Below, piece by piece: positions 18,766 through 62,118 of a stretch of 64,000 nt of DNA. The stretch is from a virus. Below the pieces are notes generated by a model. That model saw nothing but the letters and a program-made list of their open reading frames with translations. It had not been told where the DNA came from and searched no databases. The translations under genes and the position numbers were made by a program. Numbering within the stretch: the stretch's first letter is position 1; each line of letters starts with the position of its first letter. The DNA is taken from the IMG/VR virus record IMGVR_UViG_3300013947_000002, positions 1 through 64,000 of that record; one strand, written 5' to 3'.

Positions 18766-19697
18766 TTAGCCGGTTACAGTAACCTCGAAATAACCAACGA
18801 CAGGAACGCCACCATCAGCGCCCTTGAGCGTTGCAGAGATATGAGCCGTGCCAGCCGCCTTAGCGGTCACAACGCCCTTAGCGTCAACAGATGCATAGGT
18901 GTCGCCATCTTCAACCGCAAAGGTAAAGTTGGAGTTGTCCATAATCTTAGGCGCTTTATTGCCATCAAACAGGACATAGCAAACAGCGGTCTGAGTACCC
19001 TGAGCGGCTAGAGACATGTCAGCGTCCTCAAATGCAATAGCCTTGACTTCGTTCTGCCACTTTGCACCAAAGATTTCTTCGGTCATAGTGCCATAGTAGG
19101 ACTCGGATTCGCAAGAATCGGTGTTGTCAACTGCTAGAGCAGAGCCAGACAGAGAAACAGTGGCTGCGGAAGTTGCGGTCAAATTGAGGTCTTGAGCACC
19201 ATCAAGCTGTAGTCTGGGAATATCAGTAATCAGACGGCCAATCTTCGTTGCATTGTTCGTGGTGAAAATATCTGCATTGAACAGGTCGTTCAGAATGATG
19301 ACGTGAAGCTCATCAGGGACGTAGTCAACAGGAATAATGATGCTATCTGCATTGGCGTTCTGATAGAAATACATAACACAATACTTCTCACCAGCCTGTG
19401 CATTAGGAATAGCCATAGTATAAGTGCCAGTAGATTCAGTGATAGTACCAACAGAATAGTCGGCTTCACCGGGTTTACGATACCAGCCGATTAGAGAGCC
19501 TGCAACTGCGGACGGGGACTGTGGTAGAGTGACCTGACCAGCCGTAGCAACGGTAAGCTCATTCTGATAAACACCAAGACCGCCTTTGGTTAGGTCAACG
19601 CCTAGATTAGCGGCAATATACTCAAGCTTGAAGCAAGAGTCAGTAATCTGAACAGTAAGACCGGAATCATGGTAATATTTACCGATTAGTGCATTGC
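18766..19697 (-). CDS. major tail protein, exon 2 (C-terminal Ig-like Big_2-type domain)
   Basis: The frame stays open upstream of the track ORF as far as 19707, reading ..ALIGKYYHDSGLTVQITDSCFKLEY... The C-terminus 'DAKGVVTAKAAGTAHISATL..VTVTG' is Big_2-like. Confidence 0.65.
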
Positions 19698-20149
19698 CTA
19701 TTATATTTTATACCAAAAAAAATGGCATGAAATATTTTGTATTCATATTGGGTCGCAACGCCAATATCGACTTACTATCACTAGCAGTCTGCTCATGTTT
19801 TCACATGAGAGTAGAATATATGTTCACCCTATTTAATAGGGGTCGGATTTTTCCTCCTCCATACGCTTGAGGTTCTACTTCTCCCACAAGGAGATATTCG
19901 TTGAAAGTTTCCCATGTATATTATATCATATTACTATAAATATGTCAATATATTTAGGGATTTCTCTGCTAAACACCCATTTTTATCGGCATAGACTATT
20001 TAGGATTTGACCATGTAGTCATCCCACAACTTTTTTCTACTTTCGCAACCATTCAGCTTGTCGTTTCCAACTACTGTTTAGGTGTGTGGGCTTTAGGGAT
20101 TCAAAGCATTTAACCCGAAGTCATACGCTGATTACTCAACGTAGAGAGC
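19698..20149 (-). mobile_element. ORF-less group I intron in the major tail gene (boundaries +/- ~8 nt)
   Basis: About 450 nt with no ORF. It shares near-identical blocks with the MCP intron: 19968-19980, 20000-20014 and 20090-20114 match 25877-25891, 25900-25914 and 25996-26020. Confidence 0.65.
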
Positions 20150-30799: not shown

Positions 30800-30938
30800 C
30801 CTCCTTTCTTTGTTTTATATTTTTGAGTGTTTTTATTTTCGGCTTTTGATTAAGTCTAGTTGGAACTTGGATTTCACTAAACCCTAATAGCGCCTCCACA
30901 ACAACATACCAACATAGCCGTTGCTTCATAGGTAAATA

Positions 30939-32780: not shown

Positions 32781-33604
32781 TATGCTTCCTCCTTGCTAAC
32801 GTCTGGATATTCGCGAGTACAACAAATTGCATTGCGCAAGCTGCGCATCATCATTGCCTTTTCTTTCTCATAACCAACCTTATCGAGAAATTCTTGTAAT
32901 TCCTCACATTCAGCCGGTCTAGTTGATTCTATAATGGCAACTCTCTTCTCAAATGCCCTTTCAGCGTCCGACTTTTGATTACTCTTAAAGTCATCAAGTT
33001 TAAGCAAAGACATAAGTGTCTTAATCTGCGCCTGAGTGTCTTTAGTTACGCCATTTTTATACTGTTCCAATTCCAACTTGCACAAATCACGATAGCGCAT
33101 CTCCATAGCGGTGCCCATCTCAAATACGCCAGACGTATAGCTATCAAACATATCGTCTAGCCATTGACAGTCCTCGTCCTCATAATCGCCACCCCACTGT
33201 TTGCGCCATCTTGCTTTAAGCGCCACCTCATCAGTTTCGCCCTTAGCAACATCGCCCAAATCCTTGAAATTAGACAGCTCCATATCACTATCCCATACAC
33301 CCGTTAATTTATCGGGCGATGTAGACAAGTAGGTATGATACAACATAAATAGACTAGGTTTTTTGCCCTTAGCCGCCTTATCTAGTGTCTCTAAGCATGA
33401 ATTATATTCTGCCCGCCGCATAGGAATGCCAGTCATCATACAGGTTGACCATAACGCCGCGCCTTGGTCTTTGGTCGCATCGAGCGCCTGTTTATATAGC
33501 TCAGTCACGCATGATTTACACGGCTTAATATATTCGCCCGTCTTGATTGGGCTTTTGTAAAATTGGCTATCTTGCTTTTCTTTGCCACAATACGGGCAAA
33601 ACAT
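32780..33604 (-). CDS. putative terminase small subunit (N-terminal zinc ribbon)
   Basis: Likely start at ATG 33602-33604 (MFCPYCGKEK.., GAAAGGAATGAG RBS). Shares 1 nt with the terL start. The call is positional. Confidence 0.5.
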   Translation of the reverse strand: MFCPYCGKEKQDSQFYKSPIKTGEYIKPCKSCVTELYKQALDATKDQGAALWSTCMMTGIPMRRAEYNSCLETLDKAAKGKKPSLFMLYHTYLSTSPDKLTGVWDSDMELSNFKDLGDVAKGETDEVALKARWRKQWGGDYEDEDCQWLDDMFDSYTSGVFEMGTAMEMRYRDLCKLELEQYKNGVTKDTQAQIKTLMSLLKLDDFKSNQKSDAERAFEKRVAIIESTRPAECEELQEFLDKVGYEKEKAMMMRSLRNAICCTREYPDVSKEEA

Positions 33605-33639
33605 ATTCTCATTCCTTTCAATTTCCAAATATAACAAAA

Positions 33640-34441
33640 CGGCCAGCCCACACAGAGCCAGCCGTTCGTTTATTTCATTTATTCAGTTGTCAAGGTTCAT
33701 ACTGTGATACCCTATCGCTAGGGGCATACGGCGTTTCGCCTTTAGTTGAACAACAGTTCCCATTGAGTTGGGCTTATTGTAGATATGAGGCCGTAGCCTC
33801 CGTCACCTCCTTTCGTCAATTATGCTTCGGATAAACCAGTGGATAATTCAAGAGAAAGTGACCTCCCTTCGGATATTCATAGCCGCCAATGAGTAGTAGC
33901 GACAGGCAGTTTCAGTATGTGCCTAGATACAAGCATTTCGTCAAAGCTCTTACTTGTCAAGCGCCATCAAGCATCTAGCGCTACTCACTGTTATGTTTTA
34001 ATCACGGCTAAGACTCGCTTGGTGTTACCGCCAATTTGGTCTTATTTAATCCCTCATCCCATGCACACGGGAACCGCAGTGCGCCTCATCTTATTTCACC
34101 CACGCATGGCGCTATGTTGGGAAATATGGTGCAATGGGTCTTAGATGTCTGCTCATCTCGCCTTTGCCTACTTATAGCAGAATCACCTGATATTTCTTTG
34201 CCGCATATCAGAAGCGTTTTTGAATATACGGTTTTCATCGTTGCCTTATGGTATACCGCAAACCTTCGATAAGCGTCCACATATCACTCATAGGCAACCG
34301 AGCCATATGCTTCATACGTTCGTATAACACACCTGTTGCTATACGCCTATCATCAAGGATAGGATTTTCGATACTATATTGACGTAGCCCGCCACAGCCA
34401 ACGTCATGCTCGTATTAGGCTCCACTGAATTGTGGATTCAC
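33640..34441 (-). ncRNA. candidate ~0.8-kb structured ncRNA or long leader of the packaging/late operon
   Basis: No credible ORF on either strand. A consensus promoter lies at its 5' end. Contains tetraloop hairpins (33787-33800 GAGGC-UACG-GCCUC; 33710-33723 CCCUA-GCGA-UAGGG). G+C is well above that of other spacers. Confidence 0.5.
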
Positions 34442-34447
34442 GGCTCG

Positions 34448-34476
34448 ATTATATTCAACCCTACTAGATGCGTCAA
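34448..34476 (-). promoter_or_regulatory. sigma-70 consensus-like promoter
   Basis: The minus strand reads TTGACG-17 nt-TATAAT. Confidence 0.7.
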
Positions 34477-34529
34477 TCGCCCCGCAAGCATGATTGACCA
34501 GCCGTAGCTATCACCTAGTAGAGAATGAA

Positions 34530-35714
34530 TCAAAGATAAAATGTTTTACGCCACTCTGCACCATCTTCTGAATATGTAGTAAACATACAGGACGGTCTTG
34601 ACGCTTTACGAATTTTCTTGGCAAATCCATCAACGCCACATACAGAACCAACTCGCCAGCACAGCTTATCGCCTAGCTCGGTAATACCAGCGTTCTTCAT
34701 TTCTTGCCGATGCAGATGCCCAACATAGCACTCGTCAACGTCGATATTATATAAGTTCTCAAAATATCGCATTGTCTCGGCTACGTCGCCGCCATCACCA
34801 TGATGAAGCATAATTGCATTATTTTTAATATACTTAATGGCACAATCTGTATAATCATCAACCGTAATGCCGTCTATTGACTTTAGTCGCTCTTGTAGAT
34901 ACCATACAATGATTTTACCTAGATTTTCTTCCTCAAACTGTGGTTTAGATGTAAGAATGCGGCAGGTATCATGATTACCCCCGACCATTACAACGTTGAC
35001 AGGGATTTCAAGCCGGTCATGCAATTCAACAAACCAATCAGCTAGATATTCAGACAACTTGATAACTGTATCAATAACCGGCTCTCTCAGCTTAGTCAGG
35101 CTGGACGTGCGTAGAATATTCTCTACACAATCACCAAGCACAGCAACCGTAATATCATCAAGCCAAATGCAGTTATCATCATTGCACATCTTGTTAAGCA
35201 ACCCATCAAGCCGCGCCCTCATAATGTTGAAATCGTATTTATTCACAATTTCATTATATGCGCCCTTAATCTCGTAAGTTGAACCAGCATGAAGGTCTGA
35301 AATACAAAGAAGTCCACTCATATTTGTTTGAGGCAATTTATTAAACTCACGAATAGTAAAAGGCTCAAGACATCTAATCGACTCTGCAATCCTCTCCTGA
35401 ATCATGTCAGCTCTTGCGTCTAACCGCTGATTCTGGACATGCTGAATGTTCTCGCTCTGTAATTTCTTGCGCTCTTTCTCCAACTCAGTCTTCGCTTCTC
35501 TGAGTTGGTCTAAAATCTCCGCATCTTTCTCATCTGTCTCGACATCATCTGCACCATTCAGCATATTGCGGACAAACACGGCGCATCTTCGCAGATATTC
35601 GCTTGACCAGACATCCCTATAATCTTCACCAAGACAACGAGCCGTCCATTCTTGCAAGTCAATCAACTTGCTATCTAGTAGCTCAGTCGCTTGTCGTATC
35701 TTCGTTAGATTCAT
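34530..35714 (-). CDS. calcineurin-like metallophosphoesterase
   Basis: Motifs 'ISDLHAGS', 'GDCVEN', 'GGNHD' and 'GHLH'. The N-terminus is a coiled coil. Confidence 0.75.
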   Translation of the reverse strand: MNLTKIRQATELLDSKLIDLQEWTARCLGEDYRDVWSSEYLRRCAVFVRNMLNGADDVETDEKDAEILDQLREAKTELEKERKKLQSENIQHVQNQRLDARADMIQERIAESIRCLEPFTIREFNKLPQTNMSGLLCISDLHAGSTYEIKGAYNEIVNKYDFNIMRARLDGLLNKMCNDDNCIWLDDITVAVLGDCVENILRTSSLTKLREPVIDTVIKLSEYLADWFVELHDRLEIPVNVVMVGGNHDTCRILTSKPQFEEENLGKIIVWYLQERLKSIDGITVDDYTDCAIKYIKNNAIMLHHGDGGDVAETMRYFENLYNIDVDECYVGHLHRQEMKNAGITELGDKLCWRVGSVCGVDGFAKKIRKASRPSCMFTTYSEDGAEWRKTFYL

Positions 35715-36734: not shown

Positions 36735-37415
36735 TTAACATATCCCCCGTTCGGACAGGCGGGCTTCACGTGATGCAATGCGGCGCTGATTATCCGCTTT
36801 TTTGCCACACTCCTCAGAGCAATAATGCTGGCATACATCACGTGGTTTGAACCGCTTGCCGCAAATTGGGCAAATTGGATTAAGTGTGGCTGCATTGACT
36901 TTCAGATTCTCTACAATCTGCTTGCCAAAACAAGCCCACAACATTTTTTTATTGCTTGCTTTCTTAACCGTATATAGATACGCCACCAAGCTATTAACCA
37001 CAACATCCAGTGGCTCTTTGCTGTAATCCACAATATCTTGTGCTATGCACCGATACTTGTACAAATCGTCCTCATTGATATGCGGGTCATCGCCATAATC
37101 AAATCGGCGCTGATTCTTAATCCAGTAATTATACCGCTCAATGATTGGCGATTCTTCTCGCGTCGTATAATCAACTTGTTTGTTAATCAGCATTATCCAA
37201 TCAAACTTCCCAATTTTGTTATTATAGTGGATTCGGGAAGTAGGAATTTTGGCCGATATACGATTCATCGTGGAATTGTTGGGAGGCTCTACTTGGGTAT
37301 CCGGGTCTTTGTCTTTGGCGTATTGGAAGAAATTTGGCAATTTGGATTTAGTATATTTTTTTATAATATCTGAAATTTCTTTTGGCGGTTCCGATTTCCA
37401 CAATGTCTTTGCGAA
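36735..37415 (-). CDS. YonO-like single-subunit RNA polymerase, exon 2
   Basis: The track ORF starts at a TTG with no RBS. The frame is open 4 more codons upstream (FAKT). The C-terminus has a Cys4 zinc ribbon (CPICGKRF..CQHYCSEEC). Confidence 0.6.
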   Translation of the reverse strand, partial: FAKTLWKSEPPKEISDIIKKYTKSKLPNFFQYAKDKDPDTQVEPPNNSTMNRISAKIPTSRIHYNNKIGKFDWIMLINKQVDYTTREESPIIERYNYWIKNQRRFDYGDDPHINEDDLYKYRCIAQDIVDYSKEPLDVVVNSLVAYLYTVKKASNKKMLWACFGKQIVENLKVNAATLNPICPICGKRFKPRDVCQHYCSEECGKKADNQRRIASREARLSERGIC

Positions 37416-38426
37416 CCTTTAATACCGTCTCTTTCGAGATACTTTAACACCACTCTAAGCGGTCGGAGTAGACTATCTCTTCATCTCAATGAGATGGATG
37501 GCACTTCGCAAGTAGGAATTTCACCTACAAGCTACACTGAAAACAGTTAGTCGTTACAGCTTCAAATGTTTGATATTTTAATTTTCTTGATAACCAAATA
37601 TCCAATCCTTATGGGTTTTATTTCGTCCGTGTAACACTCTGTCAATACAGGAATAACTTAAATTGCGGTCTTTTGCAAAATTTCTAATATTCACAAATTC
37701 TACATATTCGCCAGTTTTTAAGTTTCTTCCCCAACACGCCTTTTCGTGCGCCCTAGATGAATTGTCATGCAGGGTGAGCCATCTACAATTTTCTGGACAA
37801 TAATCACCATGTGGATTTATTCTGTCGATAGTCAAATCTTCTTGATAACCATTGGATAACGCCCAATCTCTGAATGTTTCATAAGAATTTAACCACTCGT
37901 CACAAACCGTAATACCCTTTGCTCCATAATCCGCATAGCTACGAACGTTAGGATTATAGCAACGCGACTTCATATTTGACCACGTCCTATAAAGTTTGCT
38001 TCGATTGCCAACTATCGCACCACCAGACTCTCCATGACGAGTTTTGTTCTGATGAACTCTCTCAAGTCTTAAACATCCACAAGAACGAATTGGTTTATAC
38101 TGCTGGACTAATTTGTATTTAACAACCTCGACAATGTTGCCGCAATCACACTTGCATACTACAAGTAATTTACCTTCTTTATTTCTTTTGTCTGGTAATT
38201 CAACAACCGTCAATTTTTCAAATTTATCGCCTATCTTAATTTCATTTGATCTCACACCTAAACCTCCTTTCTTTTATGATAACATCAAACATTCGCTTGC
38301 CACGGTATTGCCATGCGCTCATGCGTTTAGGGTTTTACCGTTAGCACGGCATATGCCGCACACCCTACATTTGTAGGTTCACCATCATTCACATCATATG
38401 TCACCATATGAGTGGACTATCGTTTA
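37416..38426 (-). mobile_element. group I intron (HNH endonuclease-bearing) in the RNA polymerase gene
   Basis: 1011 nt. The exon 1 nucleotide before it is U and the last intron nucleotide is G. Splicing in phase 0 joins ..KNNQVID|FAKTLWK... The 5' part has hairpins and a 'CCGUGCUAAC' block like phage IA2 introns. Confidence 0.65.
37578..38255 (-). CDS. HNH homing endonuclease
   Basis: 'LYRTWSNMKSRCYNPNVRSYADYGAKGITVCDEW..F..W' and 'IDRINPHGDYCPENCRW', plus a C-terminal HTH-like 'NIRNFAKDRNLSYSCIDRVLHGR'. GTG start with an AGGAGG RBS. Confidence 0.8.
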   Translation of the reverse strand: MRSNEIKIGDKFEKLTVVELPDKRNKEGKLLVVCKCDCGNIVEVVKYKLVQQYKPIRSCGCLRLERVHQNKTRHGESGGAIVGNRSKLYRTWSNMKSRCYNPNVRSYADYGAKGITVCDEWLNSYETFRDWALSNGYQEDLTIDRINPHGDYCPENCRWLTLHDNSSRAHEKACWGRNLKTGEYVEFVNIRNFAKDRNLSYSCIDRVLHGRNKTHKDWIFGYQEN

Positions 38427-40325
38427 ATCTATAACTTGATTATTCTTCATTGTCAACCAAGCGATAACCTTGATTTGTTCCTCCGTCATCTTACCGCCAT
38501 TAGCGTTTTTTACCTTCGAAATTGCATTACTGATAGGGCCGATTGAGCCGCCTGTATATGCTGTACTTACACCTTCATATAGCCTGTCTGCGTCGATAAT
38601 ACCACCACGAGCTTTTTTAAGGTCATATGACAGCGGAACAATCCCTTGCATATTGCGCTTTGCTACAGTTGTTAGCGTCTTATCCTTGACAACTAAAGAA
38701 ATATCTCCGTCAAAATCTTGCTGCAAGATACGGCTAATCATGTCATGACAACTAAAATAAACACACTTTGTCCCACCCAACCATTTATCAGTCAATTCAT
38801 TTCGCTTGTTGACACGAACGGCGTGTTCTTGGTATAGGTGCGGACTTCTCAGACAATCAAGCTCGTCGCCATCCTTGAATTGATTAGTATATACTTCACC
38901 ATTCTCAAGTAATCCAGTTGGGAATTGTTCACCCTTGAATAACCACTCACAGAACGCCACAGGGTCAGGTGAGATGAACAAGTATTTGCCATTGATTCTC
39001 AATCTACCGCCTTTTGCTTGTTTGACAAGACTTTTTTTAGTTTGCTTTAATATTTCCCGATTGTAAACATCCTTGAATAATTCTGGATAAATCGTCAACG
39101 CCTCTTGCATGGCTGTTTTTGTCTGATTATACTCAGTTGCCCCAAGCAATCTCATCGTTGTTTGATAGTCACGCCCAACACTGTCAATTTCATCTACTGT
39201 CTTCGCGATAAGCCGCTCAATTTCATTGTCGGTCATATCGCTCAATGATTGTAGCATCTGATAATTGATTCGAGCCTTTGGGATATAATCCTCCTCGACT
39301 TTGCAGCAACCGAAGTGACAACCATAACTCTTAAAGTTCGACTTGTAGCAGAACCAGCTAGGGTAGAATTTGTACAGCTTAAACATTGATTTCGTTAGGA
39401 TATACTGAATATCATCTTCAATGATTTTCCATTCCTTTCCATATATATCCGTAACAGACCAATCATCAGCGGAACAATATTCTTTGAGCCATCCTCTAAA
39501 ATCAAAGTAGGACACCAACCCCTTTATCCACGGGCCGCGCACGATTTGCGTCTTGAATCCGGGCTTACAACACATGCCCCACCCGTCAGTTTCAGCTATA
39601 ACCGTCTCTGATACTTTGCGCGTAATGCTATAATCTGTATAATCAATAAAGTCCGACTCGGCAGTTACCGGCATCTCAAAATCATCCACCACTATACACC
39701 GGTCTATATCAAAATCGTCCATTCTGTCTGTTGCAGATGCCATAAGGCTCTTATAGCTCAACAGCTTGTTTTCATTCATACCGCCCTGAGCGTTAATTGA
39801 ATCGATGGTTAATCCGCACATGAGCGTCTGCTCAACTTCATTATAGTCTTTTTCCCTAACGGCCATAAACCGCTTTGTGCGTATCATGCCAGCGCCGCAT
39901 GAGTAGAAAATGTAATGCTCGCCTTTGTAATTGAAACCATTGTGAATGATGCTATTAAGAATCTCAAAAAAGAACACGTTGACAATGATTATTTTGTCGC
40001 TACGCTCGAACGTCTTGATTCCTAGACTTCGAGTCAACTCAGAACAGAATAGATTGATGATTGTCTTGTCTTTTACTGCGTCTGGATTGAGTTCTCTAGT
40101 AATATTATCTTCGAGAGATTTTTTAAGCAATTTGACAAGTTCGTCTTTATGCTTTTTAATAACACGATTGATAGATGAGACACGCCATTTGCGATTTTGC
40201 CCATCTTTTTCTCGCATACGCAATGTATATAATTTAACAAGACGATTATGAATGGCTTGTTCATCCGATGTATAGAAAGCATCTGTATTGATGGAGGGGA
40301 TGAAGCAAAACTCTGTTAATGGCAC
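38427..40325 (-). CDS. YonO-like single-subunit RNA polymerase, exon 1
   Basis: 'LDCLRSPHLYQEHAV' and 'QQDFDGDISLVV', the D.DGD metal-binding motif of two-barrel RNAPs and RdRP-like enzymes. GTG start with an AGAGGTGA RBS. Confidence 0.7.
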
Positions 40326-41113: not shown

Positions 41114-41258
41114 ATTTTTATTAGCCTCCTTGAGCTTAATGCCATTATATCATAATATAACTTGATATTTGTCAAGTAATAATTTCGGTCTAAAATTTAT
41201 CCCCCTATAACCCCCTATAAGGTATAATTAAATACTAACGTATTTAATTATTTACTAT

Positions 41259-41287
41259 ATTATATCACAAATTTTTCTATTTGTCAA
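41259..41287 (-). promoter_or_regulatory. consensus sigma-70 promoter for the leftward BRO/RNAP operon
   Basis: The minus strand reads TTGACA-17 nt-(TGa)TATAAT. Confidence 0.65.
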
Positions 41288-41310
41288 TAGCAAAAATAAA
41301 AAATTTTCTC

Positions 41311-41339
41311 TTGACATTGTATTGCTTCTATGATATATT
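41311..41339 (+). promoter_or_regulatory. sigma-70 promoter (rightward, distal)
   Basis: TTGACA-17 nt-(TGa)TATATT. Confidence 0.55.
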
Positions 41340-41427
41340 ACTAGTATAGTAATATATAAGTATTAACAGTATATACTGTAATAATAATTATTTTTTATAG
41401 AAAAGGGGTTGTAGGGGGAAAACCGTC

Positions 41428-41460
41428 AAATTGTAAACGAATTGTAAATGAAATTGTTCT
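41428..41460. repeat. three tandem AAATTGTAAA-like operator-type repeats
   Basis: AAATTGTAAAC, GAATTGTAAAT and AAATTGTTCT at 11-12-nt spacing, abutting the -35 element of the rightward promoter. Confidence 0.5.
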
Positions 41461-41488
41461 TGACAAGTTGCGCGACATATGCTATAAT
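41460..41488 (+). promoter_or_regulatory. consensus sigma-70 promoter (rightward early operon)
   Basis: TTGACA-17 nt-TATAAT. Confidence 0.7.
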
Positions 41489-41509
41489 CTTGCCATGAGG
41501 TGAAAAACA

Positions 41510-41722
41510 ATGCCACGAACAAAGAAAATTAACCCGCGCGTCCAATATGGCGACACTAGCTGGATTGTCAATGATTGCGGCAATGGGCAATTCGAGCTGT
41601 ATAATACCAGCACCAAACAAATTCCAGCAAAGAGTAATAATCCACTGGATTTTGATAAATATATTGACAAAATTTTTGGTAAGGAGGCGGCTAAGAATGT
41701 TCGAGATTTTCAAGCTGAATAA
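41510..41722 (+). CDS. hypothetical small early protein
   Basis: 70 aa with a GAGGTGA RBS. First ORF after the early promoter. Confidence 0.6.
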   Translation: MPRTKKINPRVQYGDTSWIVNDCGNGQFELYNTSTKQIPAKSNNPLDFDKYIDKIFGKEAAKNVRDFQAE

Positions 41723-50537: not shown

Positions 50538-50566
50538 TTGACATATGGCGCACGATCTGCTATAAT
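50538..50566 (+). promoter_or_regulatory. consensus sigma-70 promoter
   Basis: TTGACA-17 nt-TATAAT. Confidence 0.7.
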
Positions 50567-55898: not shown

Positions 55899-56320
55899 TC
55901 GAAACAACGATTTATAAATGCGAATACTGTGGAGCGGAGTTTGATGATGAATATGAGGCGAATTGCCATGAATGGGTGTGTTGGTATGTCGACGTGAAGA
56001 AACGTGACGGTGGCAGCCTTAGATTTTATAAGGAAGATGGCACAGAAATCAAATTTGATGACCCTGGTTTCGTATGGGCTGAATTTGACGATGTGATGGC
56101 ATTTACAGTTGCTAATGATAGCGACGTAAAATTCGCTAAAGACTTCTTTGAATGGCATGGCTATAGCAATCCATTTCGAGCCATTGAGGACGATGAGCAT
56201 CCGAACTATTATGGTCTATGGTGGTTCGACCCAGATCTGCATTATGGTGGATGGGTGCGCGTAGACGACCAGATTAAAAAATGGGTAGATACTAAAAATA
56301 AATTTGTCAAAAGGGCTTGA
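55895..56320 (+). CDS. hypothetical acidic protein
   Basis: 141-aa ORF. Confidence 0.7.
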   Translation: MIETTIYKCEYCGAEFDDEYEANCHEWVCWYVDVKKRDGGSLRFYKEDGTEIKFDDPGFVWAEFDDVMAFTVANDSDVKFAKDFFEWHGYSNPFRAIEDDEHPNYYGLWWFDPDLHYGGWVRVDDQIKKWVDTKNKFVKRA

Positions 56321-56345
56321 CATATGCGATTCTATATGGTATAAT
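56317..56345 (+). promoter_or_regulatory. consensus sigma-70 promoter
   Basis: TTGACA-17 nt-(TGg)TATAAT. Confidence 0.65.
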
Positions 56346-56653: not shown

Positions 56654-56731
56654 GGTAGGGACGCCAATGTGGTATCGGCACCGCCCTTATAAGACGGAGA
56701 TAGTTTGGTTCGAATCCAACCCCTATCACCA
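56654..56731 (+). tRNA. tRNA-like gene, anticodon UAU (Ile-type) if functional, with encoded CCA
   Basis: 7-bp acceptor GGTAGGG/CCCTATC. T arm with GTTCGAATCC. Anticodon loop CUUAUAA. Irregular features: no U8, an A-C in the D stem, a C-A in the anticodon stem, and a bulge or mismatch in the T stem. Confidence 0.45.
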
Positions 56732-57827: not shown

Positions 57828-58830
57828 TGTAAAGATGATGGTGCTACGAAGCCCACAGAGGACACTATCCATGGAGTGCCGAGCTGGGGAATACAGGAGC
57901 AGTAGTAAATGGAGTGAGATGAACAGCCATCATTATATGCCATATGAGGTCTTGAATGCGAATGAGCCAATGGCTGAAATTGCTCATCCAGATTTGGAGT
58001 AGTATTCAAGATATAACCTTAGCATTGCTCGTGCGAGAGGCAAGCCAAGCTAACTGCATATCCTACGTGGAATGTCTGTCTTGGATGGAAAAGAGCGAAT
58101 TAGGGAACGTGCGTGAGATAAATGAGAGAAGCATAAAAGCGGGTCACAGTCGTGTGAAAGACCGTAATGCCAAGTAGGGCGCACCAGTCAATCTGTTCGG
58201 CATAATAAAGGGATTGGGGTTGACGATTATAGAATGGCACATCGGAAAGACGATGATAATATCCGACCGGATTTGAAGATAACCGTCAAATCTATATCAC
58301 GCCTGCACTGGGGTCTGCGCAGAGTTTGAGAAGCGGCAGATACAGACTAGAGAATTGGGGTCGCGCCCAATCGTGCCACGTTAGCATCCATGCAAAAACG
58401 TAACGTCGAAGGTGATATAAGGATGTTATGTAAACAGCATTCACGAGCCGATGCTAGAAGTAGCTATGAGGTAGGAAGTCGGCTTGAGATTGAATATGGA
58501 AGTGTAAGCTAACTGGATAAACCTCGCCAATTTGGTGAGATTGCAAGTTCGATTCTTGTCACTTCTATTCCCCCACATCCATCACGCTTCTGTTTAGCAT
58601 TGCAAGCGTACCACGATGGATGTATAGAAAAGTCTAAAATCCTAGCTTTGTAAGGCTGAACACAAGAATTGGTCACTTGTGAACGGTCTAGTTTATAAGT
58701 TATAATGCTAGTTGCCGAATAGTTGAAAGCTGACCACCTGACGCTATGAGGCAGCGCTCGCCACACTCCCGATTTTAAGATGGTTGCGCAACTGTAAATT
58801 CAATTTAGCCTGAATTTGTAAGGAGTGTGG
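57828..58830 (+). ncRNA. candidate ~1-kb highly structured ncRNA (GOLLD/ROOL-like class or novel)
   Basis: No credible ORF. Long-range helices: 57834-41/57927-34; 58576-83/58615-22 with a nested ACGCTT/AAGCGT; 58761-69/58822-30. Contains an embedded tRNA-shaped module. Preceded by a strong promoter. Confidence 0.55.
58498..58567 (+). other. degenerate tRNA-like module (possible attP core or RNA domain)
   Basis: Acceptor GGAAGTG/CACTTCT (7 bp). T arm GCAAG-TTCGATT-CTTGT. Anticodon-like stem CTCGC/GTGAG. No D stem, no U33 and no CCA. Confidence 0.4.
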
Positions 58831-58917
58831 CAATTCTATCAGGTCAATATGCGCATGAACATAGCGACTTGTTTTAATAAAATTTTATTAGAAATCGAAA
58901 GGAATTTATCAGGAACA

Positions 58918-59193
58918 ATGACAAAGAAGGAACTAATCAAGTATGTTGCTGGCTCGACCGAGCATACCATTAAGGACACAGAAGAAATTGTTGATGAATT
59001 TATCGACTATGTCAAGAATGCGCTGATTGAGCATGAGGATGTAACCATCCACGGCTTCGGCACATTCAAGACCAAGCTACGCGATGCTCGTACAGCTAGA
59101 AACCCCCAGACCGGTGAAACCATTGAAGTCCCTGCCAAGTATGCACTGGCATTTAAGCCGACAAGCACATTCAAGGCGGCTATCAATGAGTGA
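58918..59193 (+). CDS. HU-family histone-like DNA-binding protein
   Basis: 'MTKKELIKYVAG...VTIHGFGTFKTKLRDARTARNPQTGETIEVPAKYALAFKP' is a canonical HU pattern. Confidence 0.85.
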   Translation: MTKKELIKYVAGSTEHTIKDTEEIVDEFIDYVKNALIEHEDVTIHGFGTFKTKLRDARTARNPQTGETIEVPAKYALAFKPTSTFKAAINE

Positions 59194-59206
59194 ATAATCC
59201 TCCTGT

Positions 59207-59245
59207 TAAAAATCCCTATGGTCGAAAGATTGTAGGGATTTTTCT
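59207..59245 (+). terminator. rho-independent terminator
   Basis: Stem AATCCCTA/TAGGGATT followed by TTTT. Confidence 0.7.
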
Positions 59246-59256
59246 AAAAATAACCC

Positions 59257-59285
59257 TTGACAAATCGCCGCTGTGGTGCTATACT
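59257..59285 (+). promoter_or_regulatory. sigma-70 promoter
   Basis: TTGACA-17 nt-TATACT. Confidence 0.65.
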
Positions 59286-59314
59286 TAAACCATCAAATAA
59301 AGGAGCTGAATGAT

Positions 59315-60151
59315 ATGAACGAACTATTTATTATGTCGCTTAAAGCAAAGCATCGTAGTGAGGGTACCATTCGCGAATATACCAAGGCGATCGAGAACTG
59401 CTTGTCGTATGTCAAGAAGCCTGAAACCGACATCAAGCCGATTGACCTTGAGTTGTGGCAGTCCAGCATGAGCAATCTTAGCTCTGCATCCGTAGCACAG
59501 CGCACATCGGCTGTTCGCGAGTATTTCAAGTTCTTGTATCGCAATGAATTTATCAGTCGCAATCCTGCTGATATGCTTGAAGCGCCGAGTATCAAGAATC
59601 GTGAGCAGTCGGCTCTTGATGGAGAGCAGGTCAGAGCGATGATTAACGCCGCAACAAATCTGCGTAACAAGGCGATTATTACGATGCTGGCTCAGACCGG
59701 TCTTCGCATCCATGAGCTTGCCAATATCACGCTTGAGCAGTATCAGAGCCGCAATGGTAATGTGTTGGTCATTCGTGGTAAGGGTGATAAGGATAGGCTG
59801 GTTGGCCTGGCTGATGAGACGATCAAGCTGATTGATAGCTATATTGCTAATGAGCGCAAAGACGGCTGCGAATACCTGTTCGTCGGCAATCGCGGCAATA
59901 AGATGGACGGCAAGAACACCAGTGCTATGCTCAAGGTGTGCGCTAAGAAGGCTGGTATTGAGAATTGGGAGGAGTTGCATATCAGCAATCATACGATGCG
60001 CCGCACGTTTGCTACGATGATGTCCGAAGCCGACGTACCTATTGAGATAATTAGTAAGGCAATGGGGCACTCAGGTTTGGCTATCACGTCCAGATACATC
60101 AAGCGCACCGAGCAGAGAGCGGTCAATGCTATGGCTGTTATGAGTTTTTAA
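59315..60151 (+). CDS. tyrosine recombinase (Xer/integrase family)
   Basis: ATG 59315 (AAAGGAG RBS). Catalytic pattern 'TGLRIHEL', 'HTMRRTFAT' and 'GHSGLAITSRYI' (R..H..R..H..Y). Confidence 0.8.
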   Translation: MNELFIMSLKAKHRSEGTIREYTKAIENCLSYVKKPETDIKPIDLELWQSSMSNLSSASVAQRTSAVREYFKFLYRNEFISRNPADMLEAPSIKNREQSALDGEQVRAMINAATNLRNKAIITMLAQTGLRIHELANITLEQYQSRNGNVLVIRGKGDKDRLVGLADETIKLIDSYIANERKDGCEYLFVGNRGNKMDGKNTSAMLKVCAKKAGIENWEELHISNHTMRRTFATMMSEADVPIEIISKAMGHSGLAITSRYIKRTEQRAVNAMAVMSF

Positions 60152-62089: not shown

Positions 62090-62118
62090 TTGACATCTAG
62101 TTGATTCTGTGGTATAAT
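62090..62118 (+). promoter_or_regulatory. consensus sigma-70 promoter
   Basis: TTGACA-17 nt-(TGg)TATAAT. Confidence 0.7.

Follow-up and report, generated by a model that had tools for sequence, protein, structure and literature searches.

A mosaic of small structured-RNA cassettes and a constant leader upstream of the probable small terminase gene in a phage with a YonO-type RNA polymerase

Introduction

The window analysed here is the whole stretch of 64,000 nucleotides (nt) from the beginning of the viral record IMGVR_UViG_3300013947_000002 of the IMG/VR database. On its minus strand, a long interval between a metallophosphoesterase/exonuclease gene and a gene resembling terS, the gene of the small terminase subunit, appears free of protein genes, and the question arises of what the phage maintains at the head of its packaging and structural genes. 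The first-pass annotation proposed a single structured RNA of about 0.8 kb at this position and named, as other options, a long regulatory leader and the packaging site (pac or cos). Comparison with related phages showed that the locus is real, structured and non-coding, but modular. The new elements are the context and a variant of a known orphan RNA, drum, together with an undescribed conserved leader and an undescribed GTAC-hairpin element.

Results

Composition of the non-coding interval

The interval and its parts, in the direction of transcription of the late genes, are as follows.

34530-35714, minus strand: metallophosphoesterase/exonuclease gene (Metallophos, phrog_284), with its stop end at 34530
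33605-34529, minus strand: whole non-coding interval from the metallophosphoesterase/exonuclease gene to the terS-like gene, 925 nt
34477-34529, minus strand: conserved block 3' of the phosphoesterase stop and 5' of the -35 hexamer, about 45 of 58 loci, 84-94% identity
34448-34476, minus strand: predicted promoter P1 of the sigma-A type, TTGACG-17-TATAAT, 11 of 12 consensus positions, best match within 6 kb
34368-34447, minus strand: cassette 'a', two hairpins, including UCCAC-AAUUCA-GUGGA at 34436-34421, with a weaker promoter-like site inside (34401-34373)
34321-34367, minus strand: two hairpins, CCUAUC-CUUGAU-GAUAGG and CGUAUAGCA-ACAGGUG-UGUUAUACG, 93-95% identical in 48 loci
34224-34320, minus strand: drum RNA (Rfam RF02958), gap copy, variant without the inner 16-nt hairpin, 43.3 bits, E 8e-5 in 64 kb
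34001-34223, minus strand: rare cassettes c1, c2, c3 and d, hairpin modules, 3-26 of 59 loci
33878-34000, minus strand: cassette M4, conserved flanks with a variable central hairpin, 42 of 59 loci
33741-33877, minus strand: core leader RNA of about 135 nt with four hairpins, 58 of 59 loci
33685-33740, minus strand: 56-nt insertion with hairpins GGCG-AAA-CGCC and CCCUA-GCGA-UAGGG (33723-33710), about 8-10 loci
33637-33667, minus strand: predicted intrinsic terminator, a 13-pair stem (7 G-C) followed by the U run UUUUGUUAUAUUU, about 30 nt 5' of the terS start codon
33602-33636, minus strand: terS ribosome-binding region GAAAGGAAUGAGAAU with the ATG, as read in the sequence

The terS-like gene begins with ATG at 33604 and encodes a zinc-finger protein of 274 amino acids (phrog_3314); its stop codon overlaps the start of the gene of the large terminase, TerL, and the protein is therefore probably the small terminase. 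The gap of about 0.9 kb without a credible open reading frame (ORF), described in the first-pass annotation, was confirmed. A search of the ORFs of the interval against PHROGs gave nothing convincing, with a single marginal match (E 0.0017) to the opposite strand. None of the longest ORFs is kept in the gaps of the 58 relatives compared. The G+C content of the interval (0.43-0.47) is moderate, as annotated. No matches to the interval were found by blastn among the isolated phages of INPHARED.

Relatives were collected by a search with the terS protein, which yielded 26 viral and 32 metagenome contigs with 67-99% identity and, together with the window, 59 loci (numbered with the letter L where one has to be named). 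All metagenome contigs whose names give a source come from human gut samples, and no relative below 67% identity was detected in the metagenome scan (32 loci).

The homologous gap is 261-1509 nt long in the relatives, and blastn splits the interval of the window into blocks that are independently present or absent. Scoring of 17 block types in the 59 loci revealed at least 30 colinear architectures, in which the order of blocks is fixed: M0, P1, a, DUF3800-VIII or GTAC element, drum, c and d, M4, core and hairpin. The drum block was found in 48 loci, the P1 block in 46, the GTAC element in 34, M0 in 29, DUF3800-VIII in 13, and the c3 and d cassettes of the window in 8-14, while seven loci are reduced to the core and the hairpin. 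The DUF3800-VIII RNA (RF03075) is called by Rfam in the homologous gap of relatives. The only protein genes ever seen there encode HNH homing endonucleases: free-standing genes of this type are present in two relatives (L010, 2872-3669; L017, 2623-3123), which marks the gap as an insertion hot spot.

Individual cassettes show both replacement and pairing-type variation. In cassette 'a', the pairing CCAC/GUGG of the window corresponds to CUGC/GCAG in L001, and in many relatives the whole cassette is replaced by the GTAC-hairpin element. The hairpin pair at 34321-34367 is invariably located 5' of the gap-type drum RNA. Cassettes c1, c2, c3 and d have no RNA family match, and their folds are no better than those of shuffled sequences; M4 occurs with two very different central variants between identical flanks. 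In the 56-nt insertion, the stem CCCUA/UAGGG is changed to CCGUA/UACGG in relatives, a compensatory replacement. Thus, because the blocks are present and absent independently of each other, a single structured RNA of 0.8 kb is not supported; near-identical phages differ in a mosaic of small cassettes. Likewise, a transcript of about 800 nt starting at 34441 obtains support from none of the computations made on the sequence.

The drum RNA and its second copy

A covariance-model search, as suggested in the first-pass annotation, placed the locus in no large-RNA family; a small RNA class, drum, was found instead. Other Rfam families are absent from the region at E up to 10, including riboswitch and leader families, and no large-RNA family matches the window at E up to 1. 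A second copy of drum is located in the late operon.

30822-30934, minus strand: second drum RNA, full-length, occupying the space from the large terminase gene to the portal gene, 51.5 bits

Since the gap copy lacks the inner hairpin and lies barely above the gathering threshold of RF02958 (43 bits), its fold was checked on relatives. Among 25 distinct gap-type homologues, the Rfam structure pairs 90% of the cells, compared with 18-46% when the register is slid, in an alignment in which one gap of the 3' arm was placed by hand. Base pairs 25-39, 26-38, 69-101, 71-99 and 73-97, which include pairs of P2 and P3, change on both sides; the changes comprise C-G to U-A and G-C to C-G, and one pair occurs in four pair types. 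The inner hairpin (model positions 84-99) is reduced to 1 nt in the gap copy and retained in the copy between TerL and portal. As the model tolerates the loss of this hairpin, the gap copy was treated as a variant, and on the basis of the alignment it is accepted as a member of drum. The drum copies of relatives score 43.6-57.6 bits, and the position between TerL and portal is occupied in nearly all of them.

The drum motif was described as highly conserved, of unknown function and located mostly 5' of Rho-independent terminators (Weinberg et al. 2017, PMC5737381). Both copies of the window share with it the helices P1-P2-P3, the UGAA / GGA internal loop and the stretches GGGUU, ACCA and GAAAAC. 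They differ from the published representatives in that no Rho-independent terminator follows directly, and no terminator-like site adjoining either copy was found; the gap copy differs further in the absence of the inner hairpin. In the window, drum is both a unit of a multi-cassette island and an intercistronic element of the late operon. A remark in the same paper (Weinberg et al. 2017, PMC5737381) links drum to a protein encoded close by; the neighbours of the window copies encode the metallophosphoesterase, the terS-like protein, TerL and portal.

The constant core leader

Alignment with related phages bears out conservation and structure for one part of the interval, the core, while the remainder is variable. 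The core is 91-99% identical in 57-58 loci, whereas the identity of the adjacent terS protein falls to 67%. A structured minus-strand RNA at the head of the packaging genes, as annotated, is supported by variation of the pairing type.

The same architecture was obtained for all 24 sequence variants of the core: the mini-hairpin UCC-GAAG-GGA, followed by a long hairpin, H2 and H3. In the long hairpin, the pyrimidine tract GGUCACUAUUCUCUU is predicted to pair with AAAGAAAGGAGGUGAC, the Shine-Dalgarno-like tract, and the two enclose an AAUUAU/AUAAUU helix. Hairpin H2 is GAGGC-UACG-GCCUC (33800-33787), in which both partners of two pairs are changed (6 and 3 sequences out of 24); H3 is ACAAUA..CCCA..UGGG..UGUUGU, with a C-G to U-A change. 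Both tetraloop hairpins reported earlier, H2 and the one in the 56-nt insertion, are thus confirmed together with compensatory changes. The G-U pairs of the core are valid on the minus strand only. When the two arms of the long hairpin were combined across variants, the mean energies were -15.5 kcal/mol for cognate and -15.3 kcal/mol for non-cognate combinations, with a narrower cognate range and no clear co-evolution. Consensus folding based on the alignment misses the outer helix of the core because of indels.

A covariance model of the core, R1, scores 152.7 bits at the locus of the window and was detected in this phage group only. It was negative in a 15-kb stretch of SPbeta, in stretches of phages D-1873, CB473P1 and TR-TP1, and in 26 other phage loci.

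A micro-ORF running through H2 and H3 (frame ending in LISTISPTQWELLFN and a stop codon), suggested by five silent-looking changes, was considered and rejected, since TGG is changed to TGA in L115 and L119 and the start codons are not conserved. The same two loci contain three more non-synonymous changes in this frame, and L128 lacks the TTG start of the first mini-ORF. No start codon is located at the right distance from AAAGAAAGGAGGUGA, 13 nt of which are complementary to the 3' end of 16S rRNA, or from GAAAGGAGGU.

Stabilisers of the 5' end of mRNA with a Shine-Dalgarno-like tract are known, namely STAB-SD of cryIIIA and the polypurine stabiliser of phage SP82. The core resembles them in bearing Shine-Dalgarno-like tracts in the leader of a long operon, here in a Firmicutes phage, and differs in that pairing of its longer tract is predicted for all variants, that the tract is interrupted (GGAUGG) in about one quarter of the variants, and that the 5' end is a predicted one.

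Promoters and the terminator-like hairpin

The sequence TTGACG-17-TATAAT was present as annotated. Its -10 hexamer occurs in relatives as TATAAT, TATATC, TATCTT and TATAAA, and activity is predicted from these sequences. The window contains 19 near-consensus sigma-A promoters (at least 11 of 12 positions), of which seven are perfect with the extended -10 TG, while fewer than one is expected by chance; the host polymerase is thus clearly used. Examples are 41287-41259, 41460-41488, 50538-50566, 56317-56345 and 62090-62118, and three matches are clustered in the divergent intergenic region 41114-41546. With 19 such sites, the score of P1 is not rare here and P1 is part of the promoter set of the phage; it is its conservation in 46 loci, rather than its score, that supports it. 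In L016, P1 is joined directly to the drum cassette, and in many relatives an extra module of 199 nt opens with a perfect TTGACA-17-TG-TATAAT.

A further promoter match is located upstream of the region.

41259-41287, minus strand: perfect promoter match TTGACA-17-TG-TATAAT, directed leftward to the polymerase gene and the island

The genes leftward of it encode a Bro-N protein, the polymerase, an HU-like protein and the phosphoesterase, and the first terminator-like site on the minus strand 3' of it is the hairpin at 33667-33637. The gap is therefore interpreted as the place where a unit transcribed by host polymerase meets the late unit. This hairpin with its U run had been described as weak; its position before the terS ribosome-binding site was correct, but with 13 pairs, 7 of them G-C, it is not weak. 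At all loci, a long hairpin is located 3' of the core, either the terminator of the window type or a stem of 15 bp capped by GCAA, which replaces it at the equivalent position in most relatives. Both types are preserved by compensatory changes (39 variants).

The YonO-type polymerase and the gene context

Upstream of the phosphoesterase gene, the window encodes a polymerase of its own.

36735-40325, minus strand: YonO-type single-subunit RNA polymerase gene in two parts (phrog_8308 positions 7-644 and 654-844)

The two parts comprise 633 (40325-38424) and 222 (37403-36735) amino acids, with 43% identity to YonO of SPbeta, and are separated by an HNH endonuclease gene (38255-37578); the locus is either a split gene or a gene with an endonuclease-bearing intron. 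The gene order polymerase, HU-like protein, phosphoesterase, terS-like protein, TerL and portal is common to SPbeta, Clostridium botulinum phage D-1873 and Thomasclavelia phage TR-TP1. The flap domain, on which bacterial polymerases depend for termination at hairpins, is missing from YonO (Forrest et al. 2017, PMC5467207). The published start site of YonO transcription in SPbeta is genome position 2225998.

A close counterpart of the interval is the yonN-yonK gap of SPbeta (PMC5467207). Common to both are the YonO polymerase, the HU-like and metallophosphoesterase genes 5' of terS, TerL and portal, and a long gene-free stretch of the late strand; the DUF3800-VIII RNA and the GTAC element of the SPbeta gap were both found in relatives of the phage studied, and in SPbeta the GTAC element lies about 60 nt 5' of the DUF3800-VIII RNA. 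The SPbeta gap differs in its length of 1.7 kb, in its location 5' of yonK-yonJ rather than between phosphoesterase and terS, and in the absence of a drum match and of the R1 core from the 15 kb searched. In phage D-1873, a drum RNA is located in a 1.2-kb gap 3' of the YonO-type polymerase gene.

The GTAC-hairpin element has the form TCATGTACCATG(N1-2)GTACAAGGAG followed by a hairpin, often with a terminal U run, and was found in 58 viral contigs of IMG/VR (L029-L086); further examples are L027 9597-9530 and L028 5584-5562. It is located 3' of P1 in many relatives, adjoins DUF3800-VIII in Bacillus prophages, in large Clostridia phages lies about 210 nt 3' of drum and upstream of the genes for ClpP and capsid, and also occurs beside skipping-rope RNA and inside phage tRNA arrays. 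The window itself contains no such element. The Rfam searches that were run assigned the element to no family, and it could represent either a small RNA or the start region of YonO. The shared occurrence of these elements across phages, in about 0.8 Mb of sequence scanned for drum, DUF3800 and skipping-rope RNAs, indicates that drum, DUF3800-VIII, skipping-rope and the GTAC element are carried together by large Firmicutes phages, in islands of non-coding DNA.

The island shares with the accessory RNAs GOLLD and ROOL (PMC5737381) the nature of orphan structured RNAs of Firmicutes phages, and cassettes related to its own (GTAC element, skipping-rope, drum) are located, in other phages, within tRNA arrays or next to them; its units differ in being about 60-140 nt long instead of 580-800 nt, in standing in series of several kinds and in having no adjoining tRNA.

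A second likeness is to morons. These are independent units of promoter, gene and terminator inserted between phage genes. In the present case as well, a host-type promoter and a terminator bracket variable accessory content between two conserved genes, but the cargo is RNA instead of protein and the cassettes share one terminator.

Other observations in the window and in the scanned phages

On the plus strand at 58825-60151, a canonical HU gene is followed by a gene of a tyrosine recombinase (Phage_integrase, E 6e-33), which may point to a temperate phage or may serve in dimer resolution. Rfam tRNA matches occur on the plus strand at 56654-56728 (36.9 bits) and 58498-58567 (30.9 bits), neither of which is reported by ARAGORN.

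The gene of the major tail protein, on the minus strand, looks interrupted: an ORF of 51 codons with a strong ribosome-binding site (20291-20136) is followed by about 450 nt without an ORF (19690-20140) and then by a startless open frame leading into ORF 19416-18766. A perfect TTGACA-17-TG-TATAAT is located at 19948-19920. The stretch 19690-20140, which has no Rfam intron match, is probably an intron or intervening sequence and the same as the first of the two large non-coding transcripts of the first-pass annotation.

The scans for drum also returned introns: Enterocloster phage CB473P1 contains a group I intron (L133, 8371-8701), and two large phage contigs contain domains of group II introns (L038, 2208-3959; L052, 5359-7109).

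Discussion

The explanation favoured, with a probability of roughly 55%, is that, where the transcription units of the host and phage polymerases meet, the interval combines an accessory small-RNA island with a leader and insulator acting in cis. The variable island (34529-33878) would consist of small structured-RNA cassettes on the strand of the late genes, driven by P1, with read-through from upstream genes probably adding to transcription. The cassettes would be accessory, moron-like units that are gained, lost and swapped, and most likely act in trans as stable small RNAs. The constant part (33877-33637) would be a cis-acting leader, comprising the core with its Shine-Dalgarno-like tract locked in a helix and the hairpin or terminator, followed by the terS ribosome-binding site. 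Host polymerase starting at 41287 or 34476 would produce the cassette RNAs and halt at the terminator before terS, keeping the late genes off, while the YonO-type polymerase, lacking the flap domain, would pass the terminator into the 33-kb late operon. The leader would then control the stability, the processing or the translation and ribosome access of the terS message.

Several observations weigh against this explanation. Single modules have fold z-scores from +0.1 to -1.7, none of them significant against shuffles, and the gap copy of drum exceeds the Rfam threshold by only 0.3 bits. Seven relatives lack the entire island, which is thus dispensable. Enterocloster phage CB473P1 and Thomasclavelia phage TR-TP1 encode YonO-like polymerases, and no drum or DUF3800 RNA was found in the 28 kb searched. 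The GCAA-capped hairpin of most relatives has a poor U tract (CAUAUUUAU) and so may not terminate, a processing or stabilising hairpin being possible instead. The start and end points of transcription proposed above are consensus matches. The insensitivity of YonO to terminators is inferred from missing domains, and if a late promoter were located 3' of the hairpin, the read-through step would be unnecessary.

A tentative alternative, of clearly lower probability, concerns the function of the cassettes and not their anatomy. According to it, drum, DUF3800-VIII and their neighbours would be anti-defence RNAs, acting as early decoys or antitoxin mimics against host nucleases such as the DUF3800 effectors of retron type VII, which have an RNase H fold, or enzymes that target tRNA. 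In its broader form, held just as tentatively, the island would be a counter-defence locus in which drum, DUF3800-VIII, skipping-rope and the GTAC element form a guild of small RNAs decoying or neutralising RNA-targeting or RNA-guided immune nucleases. The fast presence/absence turnover among near-identical phages is as at accessory and counter-defence loci, the promoters are of the host type, and members of the same RNA classes are found within or adjacent to phage tRNA arrays and as neighbours of skipping-rope RNA. The DUF3800 domain adopts an RNase H fold and is among the listed components of retron type VII; a Pfam scan of the window from 35.6 to 64 kb revealed no DUF3800 protein, so that in the scanned part the RNA has no encoded partner. 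However, nothing in the analysis supports possession of such a defence system by the host, and the drum copy between TerL and portal, placed in the late operon without a promoter of its own, does not agree with early expression. The link between drum and DUF3800 itself goes back to a remark in one paper (Weinberg et al. 2017, PMC5737381).

Rather doubtful, too, is the view that the whole interval is a long cis-regulatory leader of the put, EAR or LoaP type admitting host polymerase to the late operon. A promoter, structured RNA and a terminator do stand in series before terS, and the strictly conserved core adjoins the terminator. On the other hand, some 650 of the 925 nt are either dispensable or exchanged for other sequence in relatives, seven loci lack any promoter, and Rfam, with drum as the only family at E up to 10, offers no match to put or EAR. 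Moreover, the phage has a late-type polymerase of its own. Of the long leader proposed in the first-pass annotation, the part that could act in this way is at most the 135-nt core with its hairpin.

That the gap is a functionless spacer, the debris of recombination and homing-endonuclease traffic at an insertion-tolerant junction, is improbable, and for drum and the core this reading is largely refuted. The HNH genes in the gaps of L010 and L017, the mosaic structure and the non-significant folds of single modules would agree with it. They are outweighed by the match to the drum model with compensatory changes, by covariation that keeps the hairpins of core and terminator, by conservation of the core far above that of the flanking proteins, and by the recurrence of the same RNA classes in unrelated phages.

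A packaging site has to be considered because of its location: cos of lambda and pacL of SPP1 lie directly 5' of terS, as does the core, in which the motif TATCCGAA is present twice, 42 nt apart. It is nevertheless very improbable that the core is a pac or cos site bound by the small terminase. Its variation obeys RNA pairing rules, including the G-U pairs possible on one strand only, and most of the region is dispensable. The pac site of the SPbeta group was placed between yonR and yonP, upstream of yonO, and not at this gap (bioRxiv 10.1101/2021.11.22.469490). To a small degree, five independent assemblies (L008, L015/L124, L102, L107 and L109) also point away from the core, as they end 6.2-7.8 kb upstream of terS; these ends, near the start of the polymerase gene, may represent a defined end of the genome, comparable to the pac site of SPbeta. 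A search for genome ends with the Bro-N protein retrieved unrelated phages only.

The reading as one large ornate RNA similar to GOLLD, ROOL or OLE is the least credible of all, for although the length, the phage context and the fold of the 837-nt putative transcript (better than shuffles, z = -5.1, 20 shuffles) would suit it, Rfam gives no match to GOLLD, ROOL, OLE, HEARO or raiA, the cassettes vary independently and conserved long-range helices are absent.

The RNA classes drum, DUF3800-VIII and skipping-rope were highlighted in 2017 because their conservation points to sophisticated biochemistry (Weinberg et al. 2017, PMC5737381), and no function is assigned to any of them in the literature found. 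The present analysis places these orphan RNAs in a defined and testable setting, a cassette island at the junction of host and YonO polymerases in Firmicutes phages of the human gut. Dozens of natural presence/absence variants exist for testing drum and DUF3800-type RNAs, and SPbeta, which is genetically tractable, carries two of the elements, DUF3800-VIII and GTAC, in the leader of its late operon. If the counter-defence interpretation were true, the turnover of cassettes would record an arms race and provide a function for RNA classes that have been orphan since 2017. If the favoured explanation is true, a terminator that stops the host polymerase but not that of the phage would act as a simple switch of timing for phage RNA polymerases of a class that is poorly understood.

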